A DNA stretch of 34,234 nucleotides from a virus (IMGVR_UViG_2609459856_000009), one strand, 5' to 3'; positions 2,597 to 12,987 are shown, counted from the stretch's first letter. Numbers and translations: made by a program. The notes: generated by a model from the sequence alone, not told the origin.

Positions 2597-2757
2597 ACCG
2601 CCTCCCGTTTATTATTTATCTTCTCAGCCAGCCGCTGTGCTTTCAGTGGATTTCTGATAACAGAAAGGCCGGGAAATACCCAGCCTCGCTTTGTAATGGA
2701 GTAGACGAAAGTGATCGCGCCTACCCGGATATTATCGTGAGGATGCGTCATCGCCAT
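2569..2757 (-). CDS. Lambda orf60a-like protein
   Basis: 62-aa product ([20 protein letters not shown]...) matches my recollection of lambda orf60a; overlaps the exo start as in lambda. Confidence 0.55.
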
Positions 2758-3428
2758 TGCTCCCCAAATACAAAACCAATTTCAGCCAGTGCCTCGTCCA
2801 TTTTTTCGATGAACTCCGGCACCATCTCGTCAAAACTCGCCATGTACTTTTCATCCCGCTCAACCACGACATAATGCAGTCCTTCACGCTTCATACGCGG
2901 GTCATAGTTGGCAAAGTACCAGGCATCTTTTCGTGTCACCCACATGCTGTACTGCACCTGGGCCATGTAAGCCGACTTTATGGCCTTGAAACCACCGAGC
3001 CGGAACTTCATGAAATCCCGGGAGGTAAACGGGCATTTCAGCTCAAGGCCATTGCCGTCACTGCATAAACCATCGGGAGAGCAGGCGGTGCGCATACTTT
3101 CGTCGCGATAGATGATCGGGGATTCAGTAACATTCACGCCGGAAGTGAATTCAAACAGGGTTCTGGCGTCGTTCTCGTACTGTTTTCCCCAGGCCAGCGC
3201 CTTAGCATTAACTTCCGGAGCCACACCGGTGCAAACCTCGGCAAGCAGGGTGTGGAAGTAGGACATTTTCATGTCAGGCCAGTTCTTTCCGGAGCGGGGT
3301 TTTGCTATCACGTTGTGAACTTCTGAAGCTGTGATGACGCCGAGCCGTAATTTGTGCCACGCATCATCCCCCTGCTCGACAGCTCTCACGTCGATCCCGG
3401 TACGCTGCAGGATAATGTCTGGTGTCAT
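2748..3428 (-). CDS. exo: Lambda exonuclease (Red alpha)
   Basis: 226-aa product essentially identical to lambda Exo ([43 protein letters not shown]...). Confidence 0.97.
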
Positions 3429-4210
3429 GCTGCCACCTTCTGCTCAGTGGCTTTCTGTTTCAGGAATCCAAGAGCTTTCACTGCTTCGGCCTGTGTCAGT
3501 TCTGACGATGCGCGAATGTCGCGGCGAAATATCTGGGAACAGAGCGGCAATAAGTCGTCATCCCATGTTTTATCCAGGGCGATCAGCAGAGTGTTAATCT
3601 CCTGCATGGTTTCATCGTTAACCGGAGTGATGTCGCGTTCCGGCTGACGTTCTGCAGTGTATGCGGTATTTTCGACAATGCGCTCGGCTTCATCCTTGTC
3701 ATAGATACCCGCAAATCCGAAGGCCAGACGGGCACACTGAATCATGGCTTTATGCCGTAACATCCGTTTGGGATGCGACTGCCACGGTCCGGTGATTTCT
3801 CTGCCTTCGCGGGTTTTGAATGGTTCGCGGCGGCATTCATCCATCCACTCGGTAACGCAGATCGGATGATTACGGTCTTTGCGGTAAATCCGGCATGTAC
3901 AGGATTCATTGTCCTGCTCAAAGTCCATGCCATCAAACTGCTGGTTTTCATTGATGATGCGGGACCAGCCATCAACGCCCACCACCGGAACGATGCCGTT
4001 CTGCTTATCAGGGAAGGCGTAAATTTCTTTCGTCCACGGATTAAGGCCGTATTGGTTGGCGACGATCAGCAATGCGATGAACTGCGCATCGCTGGCATCG
4101 CCTTTAAATGCTGTCTGGCGAAGAGTGGTGATCAGTTCCTGTGGGTCGACAGAATCCATGCCGACACGTTCAGCCAGCTTCCCAGCCAGCGTTGCGAGTG
4201 CTGTACTCAT
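3425..4210 (-). CDS. bet: Recombination protein Bet (Red beta)
   Basis: 261-aa product essentially identical to lambda Bet ([59 protein letters not shown]...). Confidence 0.97.
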
Positions 4211-4215
4211 CCGTT

Positions 4216-4512
4216 TTATACCTCTGAATCAATATCAACCTGGTGGTGAGCAATGGTTTCAACCATGTACCGGATGTGTTCTGCCATGCGCTCCTGAAAC
4301 TCAACATCGTCATCAAACGCACGGGTAATGGCTTTTTTGCTGGCCCCGTGGCGTTGCAAATGATCGATGCATAGCGATTCAAACAGGTGCTGGGGCAGGC
4401 CTTTTTCCATGTCGTCTGCCAGTTCTGCCTCTTTCTCTTCATGGGCGATCTGCTGGTAGTGACGCGCCCAGCTCTGAGCCTCAAGACGATCCTGAATGTA
4501 ATAAGCGTTCAT
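4216..4512 (-). CDS. gam: Gam, RecBCD inhibitor (short GamS form only)
   Basis: 98-aa product essentially identical to lambda GamS ([21 protein letters not shown]...). The lambda-like upstream leader is present but is out of frame and has an in-frame stop. Confidence 0.93.
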
Positions 4513-4587
4513 GGCTGAACTCCTGAAAATGGCTGTGAAAATATCGCCCGCGAAATGCCAGGCTGATTAGGTAAACAGGAAAGGGGA

Positions 4588-4794
4588 TTAGTGATTCAGA
4601 CCGTTGCCGCGCCCGTCGAGAAAAACTTCCACGAGCAAGTCACGGGTATAAGTGCGCTCGATGCCGCGATGCAGATAAAGCCGTCCGCGTAAATTAGCTG
4701 ATGCAGTCCAGGTACCATCTTTGTGTTTGACCAGCATTCCTGGCATGACCGCACCTCGATTAACGGTCTGCGTTCCGTAATGTTGATGAACCAT
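4588..4794 (-). CDS. Hypothetical small delayed-early protein (kil/cIII position)
   Basis: 68-aa ATG-initiated reading frame (MVHQHYGTQTVNRG...) preceded by AGGAG at about 5-nt spacing; lies between PL and gam. It is the C-terminal part of the 136-aa ORF in the track, which begins at a TTG. Confidence 0.4.
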   Translation of the reverse strand: MVHQHYGTQTVNRGAVMPGMLVKHKDGTWTASANLRGRLYLHRGIERTYTRDLLVEVFLDGRGNGLNH

Positions 4795-5071
4795 AAAAAC
4801 TCCTGCCCGTAAGCTGGGCTGCTGAACATATAGAGACTTCTGCGCGTATTCAGGCGGTGGATGGCCGCCGGTTGTCATAACTAAGTCGCCTCGTTGAAGC
4901 GACTGAGGTATGAAGTGTTGAGTTGATTTCAGCTGGTCACACCGACGTTCACGCGTCCGCTTCACCCCTCGCACTCCCCGGAGCCTGCTGAAATTCAAGC
5001 TGCGGATCTAAGCGGTCATCGCAACGGTGAATCAGGTGATTGCCGTATCGTTGTGTTGTTGCGATGAATTC

Positions 5072-5116
5072 ATTTAAAACCATAGTTGTTTTATCGTCAA
5101 CAACAAAAGTTGTTTT
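5072..5116 (-). promoter_or_regulatory. Candidate PL promoter with OL operator half-sites
   Basis: On the minus strand: -35 TTGACG (5100-5095), 17-nt spacer, -10 TTAAAT (5077-5072). Overlapping palindromes AACAAC-N4-GTTGTT (5099-5114) and GTTGTT-N8-AACAAC (5085-5104) share half-sites with the cI-cro intergenic operator. Confidence 0.5.
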
Positions 5117-5240
5117 ATTGGTTGTTTTAGATATAACTGGTTGTATTTAAGATGGATTTATTTTGTGACTTGCATCGCATAGCGATAACTGAAGCGAGGT
5201 CGTGGTGGTTTTTTGAACGGTTTGTGTGATGAGGGGAGGC

Positions 5241-5270
5241 AAAAGAAAACCCGGCACTGGGGCCGGGTTT
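5241..5270 (-). terminator. Intrinsic terminator ending the cI-distal lysogeny operon
   Basis: Perfect 9-bp GC-rich stem (5247-5255 with 5262-5270), 6-nt loop, followed on the minus strand by a U-rich run (UCUUUU); located about 75 bp downstream of the 146-aa gene. Confidence 0.7.
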
Positions 5271-5345
5271 ATATGGATAAGAAAGGGTAATAGGGAATGA
5301 AAAATCGCTTTGCGTAATGCAAGGTGGCGAGCAGTTTCTTAAGCA

Positions 5346-5786
5346 CTAAAGAAAAAAGTACATTGATAGCTTATAAAGACCTGTTCCTGCAGCGATGATT
5401 GCTGGAACACCAAGCAATACCGCAAGCTTTGCGTCTGAAATCTTTCTATCGACAGCATCGATGGAGGGTTTTTTGGCTAGTGAATCTTTTATTGAATCGA
5501 GTCGCTCCAGAACAGCGATCATGTTTCTGTCGATAGATTTGACATCTGTCTTAAGCTCATCAACGTCACGTCGGATATAGGACACATCAGACTCAAGCTT
5601 TGCAACTTTCGATTCAAGCACATTATTACTCCCAGAGCCACCGCTACCACTTGATTGTAGCATAGGTACATTACCGCCAGACATACCAGCTGATTGAGAA
5701 AATGCTGCAGTGTGCAAAGATGATGATCTTGCCGCTTGTTCAAGCTTTTCAGTTAGGTTTGGAGCTTCGTAATAACCGTGTTTCAT
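5346..5786 (-). CDS. Hypothetical coiled-coil protein with a single C-terminal transmembrane helix (rexB-slot gene)
   Basis: 146-aa ORF: soluble N-terminus, Gly/Ser-rich linker (SSGSGGSGSNN), heptad-like segment (LESKVAKLESDVSYIRRDVDELKTDVKSIDRNMIAVLERLDSIKDSL), hydrophobic tail (LAVLLGVPAIIAAGTGLYKLSMYFFL). AT-richer than the flanks; no family recognised. Confidence 0.6.
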   Translation of the reverse strand: MKHGYYEAPNLTEKLEQAARSSSLHTAAFSQSAGMSGGNVPMLQSSGSGGSGSNNVLESKVAKLESDVSYIRRDVDELKTDVKSIDRNMIAVLERLDSIKDSLAKKPSIDAVDRKISDAKLAVLLGVPAIIAAGTGLYKLSMYFFL

Positions 5787-5794
5787 TGTTAATA

Positions 5795-6064
5795 TTATGA
5801 CTTATTGGTTTTAGCTCTATCATGCTGATCGCGAATAAAGTCAGCGAGTTTAAGCATTAAATCTTCCGTCATGCGAATTGTTGCAATGTTGTACTTTACG
5901 TTTTCAGTGTCATTACTACCATCAGCGCCCCATTCTGTAACATGCTGAAAGAAAGATATGGAGCCTAAGCGATCGTCATCTTCCCCAAAAGATGAATATC
6001 CAAATGCATCAGCATATGCATCTACACAGTTATTTGATTTTTTTATAAGTTTTTTATCACTCAT
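5795..6064 (-). CDS. Hypothetical small acidic protein (rexA-slot gene)
   Basis: 89-aa ORF directly downstream of the cI-like gene on the same strand, 8 nt upstream of the 146-aa gene (operon-like); no family recognised. Confidence 0.55.
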   Translation of the reverse strand: MSDKKLIKKSNNCVDAYADAFGYSSFGEDDDRLGSISFFQHVTEWGADGSNDTENVKYNIATIRMTEDLMLKLADFIRDQHDRAKTNKS

Positions 6065-6143
6065 TTTTGCCTTTCCCGTAATGTTATTTTTATAAAGAAT
6101 TCTTTCAGCGCATTACCCAAAAGCCTCATCAGCACGCAGCTGA

Positions 6144-6833
6144 TTATCCGTGTTTCCTATACGTCTGCGGCATACTGCCAATAACCTTCCCGAAAATGAA
6201 CACCCGGTTCATCTCGTCTTTCTCGATCGGGTCCCACGGTGAGTAGCTCTTGTTATCAGAGATAACCAGTAGCTTATCTTTCATCATTTGCAGGCGCTTT
6301 ACATGGGCTGTGTCGTCGTACAGAAACGCATAGATACCATCACCGTCGAAAGATTTAACCGTGATATCAACGAACAGCAGATCACCTGGTTCGATCGTTC
6401 CTGACATGCTGTCACCACGCACGTTAATGATGCGGATATTTTCCGCCTTCCTGCCATCGAACATGTGACGAGCATCGTCAAACGAGTACTCAACCGAGCG
6501 TAGAACTTCTACAAATTCACGGTTGATGACTCCCGGCCCGGCACTCACTTCTATATCAAGAACGTCAATCTTAAAGTATTTGGAATGGCTGACAGTTGAT
6601 TGTATTGGTTGCACTGTACTGTCTGACATATTTCCAACGCCAGAAGATAACCATTCTGCGCGCACACCCAAAGCGTTCGCGATCTCCACGATTTTAGTTG
6701 TTTGGTTAGCTTTCCCTGTTTCGATTTTCTGAATAGCAGCTTGGCTAACCCCGACCAAATCCCCAAGCGCCTTTTGTGTAAGGCCTCGCGCTAATCTGGC
6801 TTCTTTAAGTCTTTCTGAGAGTGTTGTTTTCAT
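6144..6833 (-). CDS. cI: CI-type prophage repressor (HTH-XRE plus S24 LexA-like autopeptidase domain)
   Basis: N-terminal HTH (LTQKALGDLVGVSQAAIQKIETGK), Ala-Gly cleavage site (VSAGPG), catalytic Ser (GDSM) and Lys (VKRL). Start taken at MKTTLSERL (6833), 67 bp downstream of the TTG at the head of the longer ORF (6899). Confidence 0.85.
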   Translation of the reverse strand: MKTTLSERLKEARLARGLTQKALGDLVGVSQAAIQKIETGKANQTTKIVEIANALGVRAEWLSSGVGNMSDSTVQPIQSTVSHSKYFKIDVLDIEVSAGPGVINREFVEVLRSVEYSFDDARHMFDGRKAENIRIINVRGDSMSGTIEPGDLLFVDITVKSFDGDGIYAFLYDDTAHVKRLQMMKDKLLVISDNKSYSPWDPIEKDEMNRVFIFGKVIGSMPQTYRKHG

Positions 6834-6839
6834 AGTCCA

Positions 6840-6937
6840 AATGTACAACCAAGGTTTTATTCCATCAAACGAAAATGGTTGTTGACTAAAAACAACCATA
6901 GTTTTAATCTTGATTCAAATTAACCACGGAGGTTGTT
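6840..6937. promoter_or_regulatory. Candidate OR/PR region between the divergent cI-like and cro-like genes
   Basis: Perfect 9-bp inverted repeat ATGGTTGTT-N7-AACAACCAT (6875-6899) overlapping a -35 TTGACT (6882-6887); candidate -10 TAATCT (6905-6910); GGAGG ribosome-binding site before the cro-like ATG at 6938. Confidence 0.6.
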
Positions 6938-7168
6938 ATGAATCCAGCTATCAAAACAGCGATCAATATCGTTGGTTCACAAAAGAAACTGGGCGCTGCC
7001 TGCGAAGTTTCACAGCAGGCCGTCTATAAGTGGCTTCACAACAAAGCAAAGGTATCCCCTGAACATGTCGGCAGCATTGTTACGGCTACTGGTGGAGTAG
7101 TGAAGGCATACCAGATTCGCCCGGATCTTCCGAAGTTGTTTCCACACACCGAAAAGAACGCAGCTTAA
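6938..7168 (+). CDS. cro: Cro-like transcriptional regulator
   Basis: 76-aa ORF transcribed divergently from the repressor; HTH-like segment (QKKLGAACEVSQQAVYKWL). Confidence 0.7.
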   Translation: MNPAIKTAINIVGSQKKLGAACEVSQQAVYKWLHNKAKVSPEHVGSIVTATGGVVKAYQIRPDLPKLFPHTEKNAA

Positions 7169-7237
7169 ATTTCCATTTCACGCTCTTTAACAATAAGCAA
7201 TCAACTTAACAGTCAATTCAAACTAAAGGAGTCAATT

Positions 7238-7777
7238 ATGCAACCACTTACATACCAACAGACTAGCGGATTTAGCCCGACTGCGGTGATAAATCGTTCT
7301 CAAACAAAACAGGTGCCAGGCCACGAAAAAATCCGTGATGCCGTCCGCGCCTGGTCGGCTGAAGATAATCAGGATGTCGTTGCCACACTCATTGTGAATG
7401 AGTATCGGGAGCAGGGCGGCGGCACTATCGATTTCCCTGATGATGTCAGCCGTGCACGCCAGAAGCTGTTCCGCTTCCTCGATAACAAATTCGATTCTGA
7501 AAAATACCGAAATAACGTGCGTGAACTGACCCCGGCAATTCTGGCGGTACTACCGCTGGAATATCGCGGCCACCTGGTTGAGCAGGATAGCTTCATGGCT
7601 CGGCTGGCTGAAATGGAAAAGGAACTCTGTGAGGCAAAGCAGGCGGTCATTCTCAACGCACCACGCCACCAGAAACTGAAGGAGATGAGTGAAGGCATTG
7701 TGTCGATGTTTCGAGTGGACCCGGATCTGGCTGGTCCATTGATGGCGATGGTAACCACCATGCTGGGGGCAATATGA
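7238..7777 (+). CDS. YdaT-family protein in the cII position
   Basis: 179-aa product with motifs (EYREQGGG, LTPAILAVLPLEYRGHL) resembling Rac prophage YdaT as I recall it; located between cro and O. Confidence 0.55.
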   Translation: MQPLTYQQTSGFSPTAVINRSQTKQVPGHEKIRDAVRAWSAEDNQDVVATLIVNEYREQGGGTIDFPDDVSRARQKLFRFLDNKFDSEKYRNNVRELTPAILAVLPLEYRGHLVEQDSFMARLAEMEKELCEAKQAVILNAPRHQKLKEMSEGIVSMFRVDPDLAGPLMAMVTTMLGAI

Positions 7778-10444: not shown

Positions 10445-11971
10445 ATGAAAAAAGCCATAGCATATATGCGATTTTCATCACCAGGTCAGATGTCTGGCGA
10501 CTCATTAAACCGACAGAGAAGACTTATTGCTGAATGGTTAAAGGTAAATAGTGATTATTATCTTGATACCATAACATATGAAGATTTAGGATTAAGTGCA
10601 TTCAAAGGAAAGCATGCACAATCAGGAGCTTTTTCGGAATTTTTAGATGCTATAGAGCATGGTTATATATTGCCAGGAACTACATTGTTAGTTGAAAGTC
10701 TGGACAGACTTTCAAGAGAAAAAGTCGGTGAAGCGATTGAACGTCTGAAATTGATTTTGAATCACGGTATTGATGTTATAACTCTTTGCGACAATACAGT
10801 CTATAATATTGACTCTTTGAATGAGCCATATTCATTAATAAAAGCCATACTTATAGCACAAAGGGCAAATGAAGAAAGCGAGATAAAGTCAAGTCGGGTT
10901 AAATTATCATGGAAGAAAAAACGGCAGGATGCACTGGAATCAGGTACGATTATGACGGCGTCTTGTCCGAGATGGCTCTCCTTAGATGACAAAAGAACGG
11001 CTTTTGTTCCAGACCCCGACAGGGTGAAAACTATTGAGCTAATTTTTAAACTCAGGATGGAAAGGCGCTCATTGAATGCAATAGCCAAGTATTTAAATGA
11101 TCATGCTGTAAAGAATTTCTCAGGAAAAGAAAGTGCATGGGGACCTTCTGTAATTGAAAAATTATTAGCGAATAAAGCTCTGATAGGTATATGCGTACCT
11201 TCATATCGTGCAAGAGGGAAAGGGATAAGTGAAATCGCTGGCTATTATCCCAGAGTCATATCAGATGATTTGTTTTACGCTGTACAGGAAATTCGGTTGG
11301 CACCTTTTGGTATTAGCAATAGTAGCAAGAATCCTATGCTAATAAATCTACTTCGAACAGTTATGAAGTGTGAGGCTTGTGGTAATACCATGATTGTTCA
11401 TGCGGTATCTGGAAGTTTGCATGGCTATTATGTTTGTCCGATGAGAAGATTACATCGATGTGACAGGCCATCAATAAAAAGAGATTTGGTTGATTATAAT
11501 ATCATTAATGAATTGCTTTTTAATTGTAGCAAAATTCAACCAGTTGAAAACAAGAAAGATGCTAATGAAACTTTAGAGTTAAAAATTATTGAGCTTCAGA
11601 TGAAAATTAATAATTTAATCGTTGCATTGTCTGTCGCGCCTGAAGTTACCGCTATAGCAGAGAAAATAAGACTATTAGATAAGGAATTACGAAGGGCTTC
11701 GGTATCATTGAAAACTTTGAAGAGTAAAGGTGTAAATTCATTCAGTGATTTTTATGCTATTGACTTAACCAGTAAAAATGGACGAGAGTTATGCCGTACA
11801 CTTGCCTATAAAACATTCGAAAAAATCATAATTAATACGGATAATAAAACCTGTGATATCTATTTTATGAATGGCATTGTTTTTAAACACTATCCTTTAA
11901 TGAAAGTAATATCCGCCCAGCAGGCGATAAGTGCTCTCAAATATATGGTTGATGGTGAGATTTATTTCTAA
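10445..11971 (+). CDS. ybcK: Large serine recombinase (DLP12 YbcK-like)
   Basis: 508-aa product with an N-terminal resolvase/invertase-type catalytic domain (AIAYMRFSSPGQ...) followed by recombinase and zinc-ribbon regions; matches my recollection of K-12 YbcK. Low-GC gene. Confidence 0.85.
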   Translation: MKKAIAYMRFSSPGQMSGDSLNRQRRLIAEWLKVNSDYYLDTITYEDLGLSAFKGKHAQSGAFSEFLDAIEHGYILPGTTLLVESLDRLSREKVGEAIERLKLILNHGIDVITLCDNTVYNIDSLNEPYSLIKAILIAQRANEESEIKSSRVKLSWKKKRQDALESGTIMTASCPRWLSLDDKRTAFVPDPDRVKTIELIFKLRMERRSLNAIAKYLNDHAVKNFSGKESAWGPSVIEKLLANKALIGICVPSYRARGKGISEIAGYYPRVISDDLFYAVQEIRLAPFGISNSSKNPMLINLLRTVMKCEACGNTMIVHAVSGSLHGYYVCPMRRLHRCDRPSIKRDLVDYNIINELLFNCSKIQPVENKKDANETLELKIIELQMKINNLIVALSVAPEVTAIAEKIRLLDKELRRASVSLKTLKSKGVNSFSDFYAIDLTSKNGRELCRTLAYKTFEKIIINTDNKTCDIYFMNGIVFKHYPLMKVISAQQAISALKYMVDGEIYF

Positions 11972-12435
11972 ATAATGATCTCGGATTTTAAGTTATGCTA
12001 TGATGATAAAGTGCAAGACAGAATTAATTATCTTTAACGAAACTTAATGGGTAATTACTTTGTTTGCTCCCACAAGCGAGTTTTGTACGGCTGTATTGGG
12101 GTAGTAAATGAGCTATACAATCTTAATCATTTGTTAGGTGAGAACTCTTGGTCGCAGATTCAAATACTGAAAATACGTGACAAATTATTATGAGCAAAAT
12201 GGTGTATGTCACGTATTTTGAATGGTAGGTTAAAAAATAACACCAACTTTCGTAGGTATTACTAATAATAAAGCAGAGTTTTTAGATAGTATCAATGTGC
12301 TTTGTGTATATTGTGGCAAATAATTGGGTTGGGGGTACAATTGTGATTGCTTTTGCATGAACATTGCGCCTTTATGCATAATGAGATAAAGGAATATCAA
12401 ATAAAATAACGATAGGTCATAACAAAGAGGTTTTT

Positions 12436-12987
12436 ATGAAAACACTTATCGTTTCAACTGTATTGGCATTCATAACATTTTCTGCGCAGGCTGCAGCATT
12501 TCAGGTCACTAGTAATGAAATAAAAACAGGAGAGCAACTTACAACGTCTCATGTCTTTTCTGGATTTGGGTGTGAAGGTGGTAATACATCGCCCTCATTA
12601 ACCTGGTCTGGTGTTCCTGAAGGTACCAAAAGCTTTGCCGTAACTGTATATGATCCAGATGCACCTACAGGCAGTGGTTGGTGGCATTGGACTGTTGTTA
12701 ATATTCCAGCAACAGTAACATATTTGCCCGTTGATGCAGGGAGACGTGATGGAACAAAACTGCCGACTGGTGCTGTTCAAGGCCGAAATGATTTTGGCTA
12801 TGCTGGGTTTGGTGGCGCATGTCCTCCTAAAGGAGATAAACCACATCATTACCAGTTTAAAGTATGGGCTCTAAAAACTGAAAAGATTCCTGTAGATTCT
12901 AACTCCAGCGGAGCGTTAGTTGGTTATATGCTTAATGCTAATAAAATCGCAACCGCTGAGATAACACCAGTTTATGAGATAAAGTAG
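12436..12987 (+). CDS. ybcL: Periplasmic PEBP/UPF0098-family protein (YbcL-like)
   Basis: 183-aa product with a signal peptide (MKTLIVSTVLAFITFSAQA) and PEBP-like motifs (DPDAP, GWWHW); matches my recollection of K-12 YbcL. Confidence 0.85.
   Translation: MKTLIVSTVLAFITFSAQAAAFQVTSNEIKTGEQLTTSHVFSGFGCEGGNTSPSLTWSGVPEGTKSFAVTVYDPDAPTGSGWWHWTVVNIPATVTYLPVDAGRRDGTKLPTGAVQGRNDFGYAGFGGACPPKGDKPHHYQFKVWALKTEKIPVDSNSSGALVGYMLNANKIATAEITPVYEIK

Follow-up and report, generated by a model that had tools for sequence, protein, structure and literature searches.

On its minus strand, the viral sequence IMGVR_UViG_2609459856_000009 (34,234 nucleotides [nt] long; this whole stretch is called the window here) carries two small genes between a cI-type repressor gene and the terminator that closes the repressor operon (positions 5241 to 6143). 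They encode an acidic protein of 89 amino acids (aa) and a 146-aa coiled-coil protein with one predicted transmembrane (TM) helix. The pair is cargo that can be exchanged within the repressor operon of a lambdoid prophage. Far from being an isolated operon, it belongs to a large and modular family of cassettes. The genomic positions and the design of the family suggest that the cassette probably excludes other phages. We hold the more specific reading, in which a lysogen-expressed adaptor and a membrane effector would together exclude phages, with slightly less than even confidence.

The gene pair is exchangeable cargo in the repressor operon

In the region of the pair, the prophage is 100% identical to a prophage that adjoins icd in Escherichia coli 7CC, in which RefSeq annotates both open reading frames (ORFs) as hypothetical proteins. 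The order on the minus strand is cI, a 79-nt spacer, the 89-aa ORF, 8 nt, the 146-aa ORF, the terminator, a candidate OL/PL region, and then kil, gam, bet, and exo; a cro-like gene adjoins cI and is transcribed divergently. An initial annotation, made from the sequence alone, had described two tightly packed genes behind cI, followed by a strong terminator and with a candidate OL/PL just beyond, and had equated their position with that of rexA and rexB in lambda. The ORF calls and RefSeq agree on the genes, and the terminator, the operator-like repeats, and the candidate promoter are all present (Table 1). The equivalence of the slot is borne out by its contents in phages with the same cI and by a sister cassette at the rexAB position, as described below.

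In phages PhiR34_1 and Turner, cI, the terminator, and OL/PL are 95 to 97% identical to those of the window, and the slot is empty, with just ~110 nt from the cI stop codon to the terminator. PhiR26_1, which has the same cI, carries a gene for a BamE-like lipoprotein in the slot instead. With the same cI and OL, the slot can thus be empty or hold a lipoprotein gene, which makes the pair swappable cargo. The swap is bounded on one side by the stop codon of cI and on the other by the foot of the terminator hairpin. Since the empty-slot relatives also have the terminator, it belongs to the backbone of the repressor operon and not to the insert, and transcription from the repressor promoter should run through whatever the slot contains. 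A scan of the 79-nt spacer found neither a terminator-like nor a promoter-like (sigma-70-like) site. From the signal-free spacer and the shared terminator, we infer that the pair is cotranscribed with cI.

The initial annotation had called the block AT richer than its flanks, as expected of a horizontally acquired insert. The block is indeed AT richer than the flanks (G+C fractions of 0.363 for the 89-aa gene and 0.426 for the 146-aa gene, compared with 0.51 to 0.53), but so is the whole immunity region, with a value of 0.454 for cI. Of 5426 complete E. coli genomes, 201 (3.7%), from many sources, carry the block, each in one copy and always on the chromosome, and 26 genomes have it at >=99% identity. 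A plasmid search gave no match to it. Both genes are under purifying selection. Compared with relatives at 30 to 80% protein identity, dN/dS is 0.06 to 0.10 for the 89-aa gene and 0.15 to 0.42 for the 146-aa gene.

The BamE-like lipoprotein gene of PhiR26_1 (126 aa; Pfam BamE, E value of 9e-4; L003, positions 2676 to 3056) is the sole slot cargo in that phage. In Citrobacter prophages (L005 to L008, positions 6474 to 6854), a gene for a BamE-like lipoprotein is the third gene, stacked after the cassette. Its product is possibly an entry-blocking lipoprotein.

The cassette family occupies several prophage sites

The family was gathered from protein databases and IMG/VR, and gene neighborhoods were viewed at 95 loci (52 nonredundant cassettes). 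A scan of GTDB genomes gave mostly distant coiled-coil matches in metagenome-assembled genomes, which were left out of the family. Across Enterobacterales, the coiled-coil/TM protein is essentially always encoded by the second gene of a two-gene cassette, and the cassette is also found in prophages of Salmonella, Klebsiella, Citrobacter, Enterobacter, Pantoea, Erwinia, and Serratia.

At 73 of the 95 loci (33 of the 52 nonredundant cassettes), the cassette lies directly downstream of a lysogeny repressor gene on the same strand. The repressors upstream of it are of three unrelated kinds, namely, an S24-type cI (35 loci), a short helix-turn-helix (HTH) cI of 127 to 155 aa (29 loci), and the ribbon-helix-helix protein Mnt (9 loci). 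In L117, a sister cassette stands directly behind a lambda-type repressor gene and beside a gene for a lambda-like Cro. The repressor matches lambda cI at 235 of 237 positions, and the cassette stands where lambda has rexAB. The L117 cassette (positions 3459 to 5276) consists of a 145-aa partner and a 123-aa XhlA-type membrane protein. A megablast search with the L117 region matched HK97, mEp234/HK106, and PhiR5_2 across cI, N, and cII (hits H50 to H59), and the genes annotated there encode gp48 (HK97), HicB/HicC (mEp234 and HK106), and hypothetical proteins (PhiR5_2). Going by the feature lists and the general organization of these phages, these genes apparently lie between cI and N.

The only named phage with homologues of both window proteins is UPF_BP1, a P22-like Lederbergvirus of Salmonella, in which the cassette sits between mnt and gene 16. 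In P22, this interval carries sieA and orf59a. The genes sieA, orf59a, and mnt have been described together, and SieA is an inner-membrane exclusion protein expressed from the prophage (PMC10883804).

The cassette also recurs in a third place, the gap that separates tail genes K and I; here it lies on the opposite strand, beside lipoprotein genes. This gap may be a second hot spot for cargo. In L004 (positions 4868 to 5374), L009 (positions 5001 to 5417), and L072, the lipoprotein gene is read in the direction of the tail genes and the cassette in the other direction.

Other arrangements were also seen. In L108, L111, L120 (positions about 4560 to 5300), and L116, a partner of 119 to 132 aa with a CxxC...CxxC pattern is encoded within tail modules. 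In L073 (positions 1022 to 1761), the gene in the upstream "partner" position also encodes an XhlA-like coiled-coil/TM protein, of 99 aa, and the neighboring gene encodes an AraC-type regulator, not a phage repressor. No paper on these proteins was found, although outlets outside the search or catalogues newer than PADLOC 2.0 might describe them. HepS (PMC13043305) was compared and is unrelated.

The partner covaries with the head of the membrane protein

Upstream partners come from at least five families without detectable similarity to one another: the family of the window (87 to 94 aa), a family of 93 to 106 aa, an 88-aa singleton, a Cys-rich family of 119 to 132 aa, and beta-rich proteins of ~140 aa. 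Two ~140-aa beta-rich families are homologous to each other (hhalign probability of 95%). Profile-profile tests of the 89-aa family against the 93- to 106-aa and ~140-aa families gave no homology.

The membrane protein is made up of three exchangeable parts, of which the head comprises the first 30 to 80 residues. The head cluster follows the partner family (adjusted mutual information [AMI] of 0.82), and each head cluster corresponds to a single partner family. In contrast, the type of membrane end is independent of the partner family (AMI of 0.05). There are at least three types of membrane end: that of the window, an XhlA-like type, and that of UPF_BP1. The 89-aa partner family, for example, always comes with the MKH-YYEAPNL head but occurs with each of the three membrane ends. 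This covariation of head and partner is most simply read as binding of the partner to the head, in which case the coiled coil and TM helix would be an output module common to the family. A swappable partner on a constant membrane end is a modularity typical of sensor-effector systems.

Predicted architecture of the two proteins

The 146-aa protein consists of a head (residues 1 to 54), a helix (residues 55 to 105) with a clean heptad register of ~7 heptads, and a TM segment (residues 119 to 137). In the AlphaFold2 model, the head contains a single short low-confidence helix (residues 11 to 23) within a disordered stretch, which is followed by a Gly/Ser linker. The second helix holds the sole hydrophobic segment, after which 8 to 9 residues remain before the C terminus. 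This layout is that of a tail-anchored protein, in which nearly the whole chain would be cytoplasmic. Thus, the linker, coiled coil, and TM helix of the initial annotation reappear in the model, but the soluble head does not, as it is one short helix in disorder rather than a globular domain.

The resemblance to XhlA that had also been proposed is real but below threshold. Against the XhlA profile (PF10779), the 146-aa protein scores 11.5 bits (E value of 0.34) and a sister C-terminal variant scores 25.2 bits (E value of 1.9e-5, covering positions 9 to 66 of 67), both of which are below the Pfam gathering threshold of 34.7. Some database entries for relatives carry the name "hemolysin XhlA." The 146-aa protein falls in phrog_3556 (4.3e-54), a PHROG of unknown function, and has weak matches to "hemolysin" and holin-like PHROGs. 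No Pfam or NCBIfam model matched it above threshold, PADLOC-DB 2.0 gave coiled-coil noise only (E value of >= 0.006), and a PDB sequence search returned coiled coils only (P22 tail needle gp26, E value of 0.003). A match of YdaT_toxin to the coiled coil was rejected as chance level (E value of 0.024; 15.5 bits, compared with a cutoff of 21).

The 89-aa protein has a pI of 4.98 and no hydrophobic segment. Its AlphaFold2 model (predicted local distance difference test [pLDDT] of 78) has three long antiparallel strands followed by a 22-residue C-terminal helix, in keeping with the acidic protein and C-terminal strand-helix segment described at the outset. It falls in phrog_4231 (2.2e-49), which is likewise a PHROG of unknown function. 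The family is very small: an exhaustive hidden Markov model search of 1.84 billion proteins found just 8 representatives at 50% identity, and two weak matches of its profile to WD40 repeat proteins are spurious. Pfam and NCBIfam gave no match to the 89-aa protein, PADLOC gave 0 matches, and the PDB sequence search gave nothing. A BFVD search had no match at an E value of <= 0.001. Across the Pfam, NCBIfam, PADLOC, PDB, and PHROG searches, neither protein resembles RexA or RexB or belongs to a characterized family, as the initial annotation had supposed.

A conserved internal start suggests a second product

The annotated ATG of the 146-aa gene (position 5786) follows the partner stop codon closely and is without a Shine-Dalgarno (SD) sequence. 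Across the family, the spacing between the partner gene and the membrane-protein gene is 1 to 12 nt, or the two genes overlap. In addition, nearly all family members have GGAGG, AGGAG, or GGGAG, encoded in the Gly-rich linker, 3 to 11 nt before an in-frame ATG that opens the coiled coil; in the window, the corresponding candidate start is a GTG (Table 1). A 5-mer SD sequence precedes the conserved in-frame ATG in 28 of 33 unique sequences, or in 26 of 31 when distinct linker peptides are counted, compared with 5.5 +/- 2.0 expected, and a maximum of 14, from resampling of synonymous codons (E. coli usage, 2000 trials), a statistic that is inflated by relatedness among the sequences. GGA makes up 37% of the glycine codons in the linker. 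Many database gene calls for relatives begin at the internal Met and give products of 90 to 93 aa.

The conserved internal SD sequence and start suggest that there is a headless second isoform. Because the annotated ATG lacks an SD sequence, the spacing to the partner is tight, and the internal start has an SD sequence of its own, we propose that the gene may give two products: the full-length protein, made by coupling to translation of the partner, and a headless form of ~91 aa that would be initiated independently. The gene for lambda holin S105/S107 is similar in having two in-frame starts in one membrane-protein gene, the products of which could co-oligomerize. The holin forms differ by 2 residues, whereas the candidate 146-aa forms would differ by ~55 residues that include the presumed partner-binding head. 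Lambda also makes extra RexB alone from an internal promoter, which is a loose parallel to the proposed headless isoform.

Proposed function and alternatives

Several lines of evidence are consistent with a cassette that is expressed in the lysogen and excludes phages. The cI stop codon and a terminator common to the empty-slot relatives exactly bracket the cargo, which follows a signal-free spacer. The association with lysogeny repressors is recurrent, and both the rexAB and the sieA positions are occupied. The cassette behaves as a moron, since it is also found between tail genes K and I, on the strand opposite to theirs and beside lipoprotein genes. The predicted combination of a coiled coil with a C-terminal TM helix is suitable for an effector, and sister variants approach XhlA. 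To these can be added the modularity, the translation signals, and the purifying selection on both genes.

As cargo inside the repressor operon, both proteins should be made continuously in the lysogen, along with cI. The 146-aa protein would be tail-anchored in the inner membrane by its single C-terminal helix, with the N-terminal 118 residues facing the cytoplasm, and the coiled coil of ~7 heptads would drive its oligomerization. The acidic 89-aa protein, which is probably cytoplasmic, would dock on the head of the 146-aa protein as a specificity subunit, either an adaptor or a sensor. Infection by another phage could then switch the state of the complex, after which the membrane subunit may compromise the inner membrane through a lesion or depolarization, as has been proposed for RexA/RexB. 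Alternatively, the membrane subunit may cooperate with the holin of the invader and cause it to fire early. Either way, the infection would abort. The headless isoform would probably coassemble through the coiled coil and tune the threshold.

By function and position, RexAB appears to be the closest known system. Like the cassette, rexAB, the abortive-infection pair that lambda transcribes with cI, occupies a slot on the cI strand between cI and the terminator before OL/PL, with a gene for a soluble protein first and a gene for an inner-membrane protein second, and expression with the maintenance repressor is expected for the cassette too. RexA has ~279 aa, and RexB has ~4 TM helices. In comparison, the 89-aa partner is small and its family is interchangeable, and while RexB is polytopic, the 146-aa protein has the one hydrophobic segment. 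Neither protein has a match to RexA or RexB at an E value of <= 1 in Pfam, NCBIfam, or PADLOC. Thus, sequence and predicted membrane topology place the cassette outside the RexAB family.

Other observations weigh against the exclusion reading. A minority of cassettes, namely those whose partner is Cys-rich, are embedded in tail modules and run in the same direction as the tail genes, an arrangement that does not fit with lysogen-only expression. No match was found to any PADLOC model or to any known defense, toxin, or holin family in Pfam, NCBIfam, PADLOC, or PHROGs. The AlphaFold2 model of the 146-aa protein is of low confidence (pLDDT of 60), and a single TM helix with a periplasmic tail of 8 to 9 residues is a weak basis for predicting a pore. 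The SD enrichment could come partly from shared ancestry. Guilt by association based on a slot is fallible; the same slots also carry hicAB-type genes and lipoprotein genes. HK97 gp48, hicAB of mEp234/HK106, and the BamE-like lipoprotein gene of PhiR26_1 apparently occupy the same cI-to-PL slot and encode unrelated proteins. This marks the slot as a site for cargo in general and weakens any argument from position to function.

The cassette could instead act in superinfection exclusion at entry, with the tail-anchored protein and its partner placed on the cytoplasmic side of the inner membrane, where they would block translocation of incoming phage DNA in the manner of SieA, and with the cell surviving. 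We consider this unlikely, although it has the sieA position of the cassette in a P22-like phage in its favor, along with the frequent presence of lipoproteins, which are typical entry blockers, among neighboring hot-spot cargo and the suitability of constitutive expression with the repressor for a standing block. However, the 146-aa protein is predicted to be almost wholly cytoplasmic, with just 8 to 9 residues outside, and the diverse cytoplasmic partner families are more like sensors of intracellular cues. The libraries scanned gave no similarity to the SieA, Imm, Sp, or Cor families. For SieA, this means that no match so named appeared in the library scans; no direct comparison with the SieA sequence was made. 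The position between mnt and gene 16 is that of the UPF_BP1 cassette and not that of the window pair, and SieA acts as a single protein (PMC10883804), while the cassette has two genes, one of which encodes a single-TM protein.

Two small and tightly coupled genes, with a soluble acidic protein encoded first and a membrane protein second, are also what would be expected of a toxin-antitoxin (TA) or addiction module, in which the acidic protein restrains a membrane toxin and the role is prophage maintenance or stress. The covariation of head and partner implies a cognate complex, and related phages have HicB/HicC annotated in their immunity regions, in what is apparently the corresponding slot. 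Even so, a TA module seems quite unlikely. The Pfam and NCBIfam scans matched no toxin or antitoxin family, embedding in the repressor operon without a detectable promoter of its own is atypical of autoregulated TA pairs, and a prophage would gain little from addiction in this slot. TA and abortive infection are compatible and not mutually exclusive.

A role unrelated to phages, as a lysogenic conversion factor that improves host fitness (for example, a membrane scaffold for stress tolerance, the envelope, or virulence), is improbable. Morons in these slots include nondefense cargo, the block is present in E. coli from many sources at the frequency given above, and the predicted tail-anchored, cytoplasm-facing coiled-coil layout recalls that of the E. 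coli ElaB/YqjD-type proteins. Against this, rapid shuffling of partners on a constant effector is a signature of arms-race systems, and two classical exclusion slots are occupied.

By architecture, the closest protein is XhlA, which is likewise small, with an N-terminal coiled coil ahead of one C-terminal TM helix; the 146-aa protein shares this layout and is within the size range of ~90 to 150 aa. XhlA, a membrane protein of Bacillus subtilis PBSX, works together with the holin XhlB, is required for lysis, and is encoded in a lysis cassette with XhlB and the endolysin XlyA (PMC5589764). In contrast, the 146-aa gene lies behind a repressor gene, its product has a partner-specific head, and the neighbors of the pair are cI, the terminator, OL/PL, and kil, with no holin or endolysin gene nearby. 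It is therefore the Pfam threshold and the genomic context that keep the 146-aa protein out of the XhlA family. That the cassette is a lysis accessory of the prophage itself, helping its own holin after induction as XhlA does in PBSX (PMC5589764), is highly improbable despite the subthreshold XhlA similarity and the weak "hemolysin" and holin-like PHROG matches: the genes are not in or near the lysis cassette, they would shut off once cI transcription stops (being on the repressor strand, upstream of the terminator), the cassette elsewhere lies on the strand opposite the late genes, and close relatives of the same phage do without both genes.

Other features of the locus

The longest ORF for cI has 251 aa, which is the form annotated in phage records, while the RefSeq start at position 6833 gives 229 aa. 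The start ATG of the longest ORF lies inside the perfect palindrome listed in Table 1, which is OR operator-like, and the 229-aa form is more likely. The candidate OL/PL is almost identical across three phages with the same cI. No N-like antiterminator gene was found between the candidate PL and kil (positions 4830 to 5100), and the phage may use another antitermination mechanism. The interval from PL to kil holds just a 44-aa ORF (positions 4949 to 5083), and RefSeq has no annotation there. An Rfam search of positions 4800 to 7300 found nothing. In the 7CC prophage, RefSeq annotates emrE, ylcJ, and ybcK directly beyond the replication genes and ren (L001, positions 10618 to 12731), which is a DLP12-like stretch.

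Table 1. Features of the repressor operon and its surroundings in the window
Feature	Position(s)	Strand	Basis or details
cI-type repressor gene (HTH_3 + Peptidase_S24)	6144-6899	-	Pfam S24 1.5e-18, HTH_3 6.5e-13; phrog_4 5e-73; RefSeq WP_000858975.1
Spacer from cI stop to 89-aa gene, 79 nt	6065-6143	-	SD-like GGGAAAGG upstream of ATG
89-aa gene	5795-6064	-	ORF call; phrog_4231
146-aa gene	5346-5786	-	ORF call; phrog_3556
Candidate internal ribosome-binding site and in-frame start	5619-5633	-	GGGAG, 7 nt, GTG at 5621-5619; would give a headless product of ~91 aa
Intrinsic terminator closing the cI operon	5247-5270	-	9-bp stem, 6 G-C pairs, then T run; -15.1 kcal/mol
Candidate OL operators, 17-nt operator-like repeat	5078-5094, 5102-5118	-	Repeat search
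Candidate PL	5072-5100	-	-35 TTGACG 5100-5095, 17 nt, -10 TTAAAT 5077-5072; read from sequence
Candidate OR operator	6875-6907	.	25-bp perfect palindrome 6875-6899; inverted copy of OL repeat 6889-6907, between cI and cro

Implications for prophage immunity

Prophage cargo that is coexpressed with the repressor is a proven source of antiphage systems, including RexAB, SieA, and BstA, and most such cargo is unannotated. The cassette has no entry in Pfam, NCBIfam, or PADLOC. Its kind, as defense or exclusion cargo expressed with a prophage repressor, is known; the family, the plug-in design of partner and head, and the internal start are new to the libraries and literature searched. More tentatively, the cassette may represent a new and widespread family of immune modules in Enterobacterales prophages, in which a constant effector occurs in long and headless isoforms, interchangeable sensors dock on a coevolving head, and the whole is traded among the rexAB, sieA, and tail-gap slots. 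Such a family, which is possible rather than expected at this point, would do the work of RexAB with unrelated components and with a specificity that can be plugged in. The cassette offers a compact, testable model of a sensor coupled to a membrane effector, with specificity modules that are exchanged between phages, and it may be of practical use in predicting the phage susceptibility of clinical Enterobacterales.

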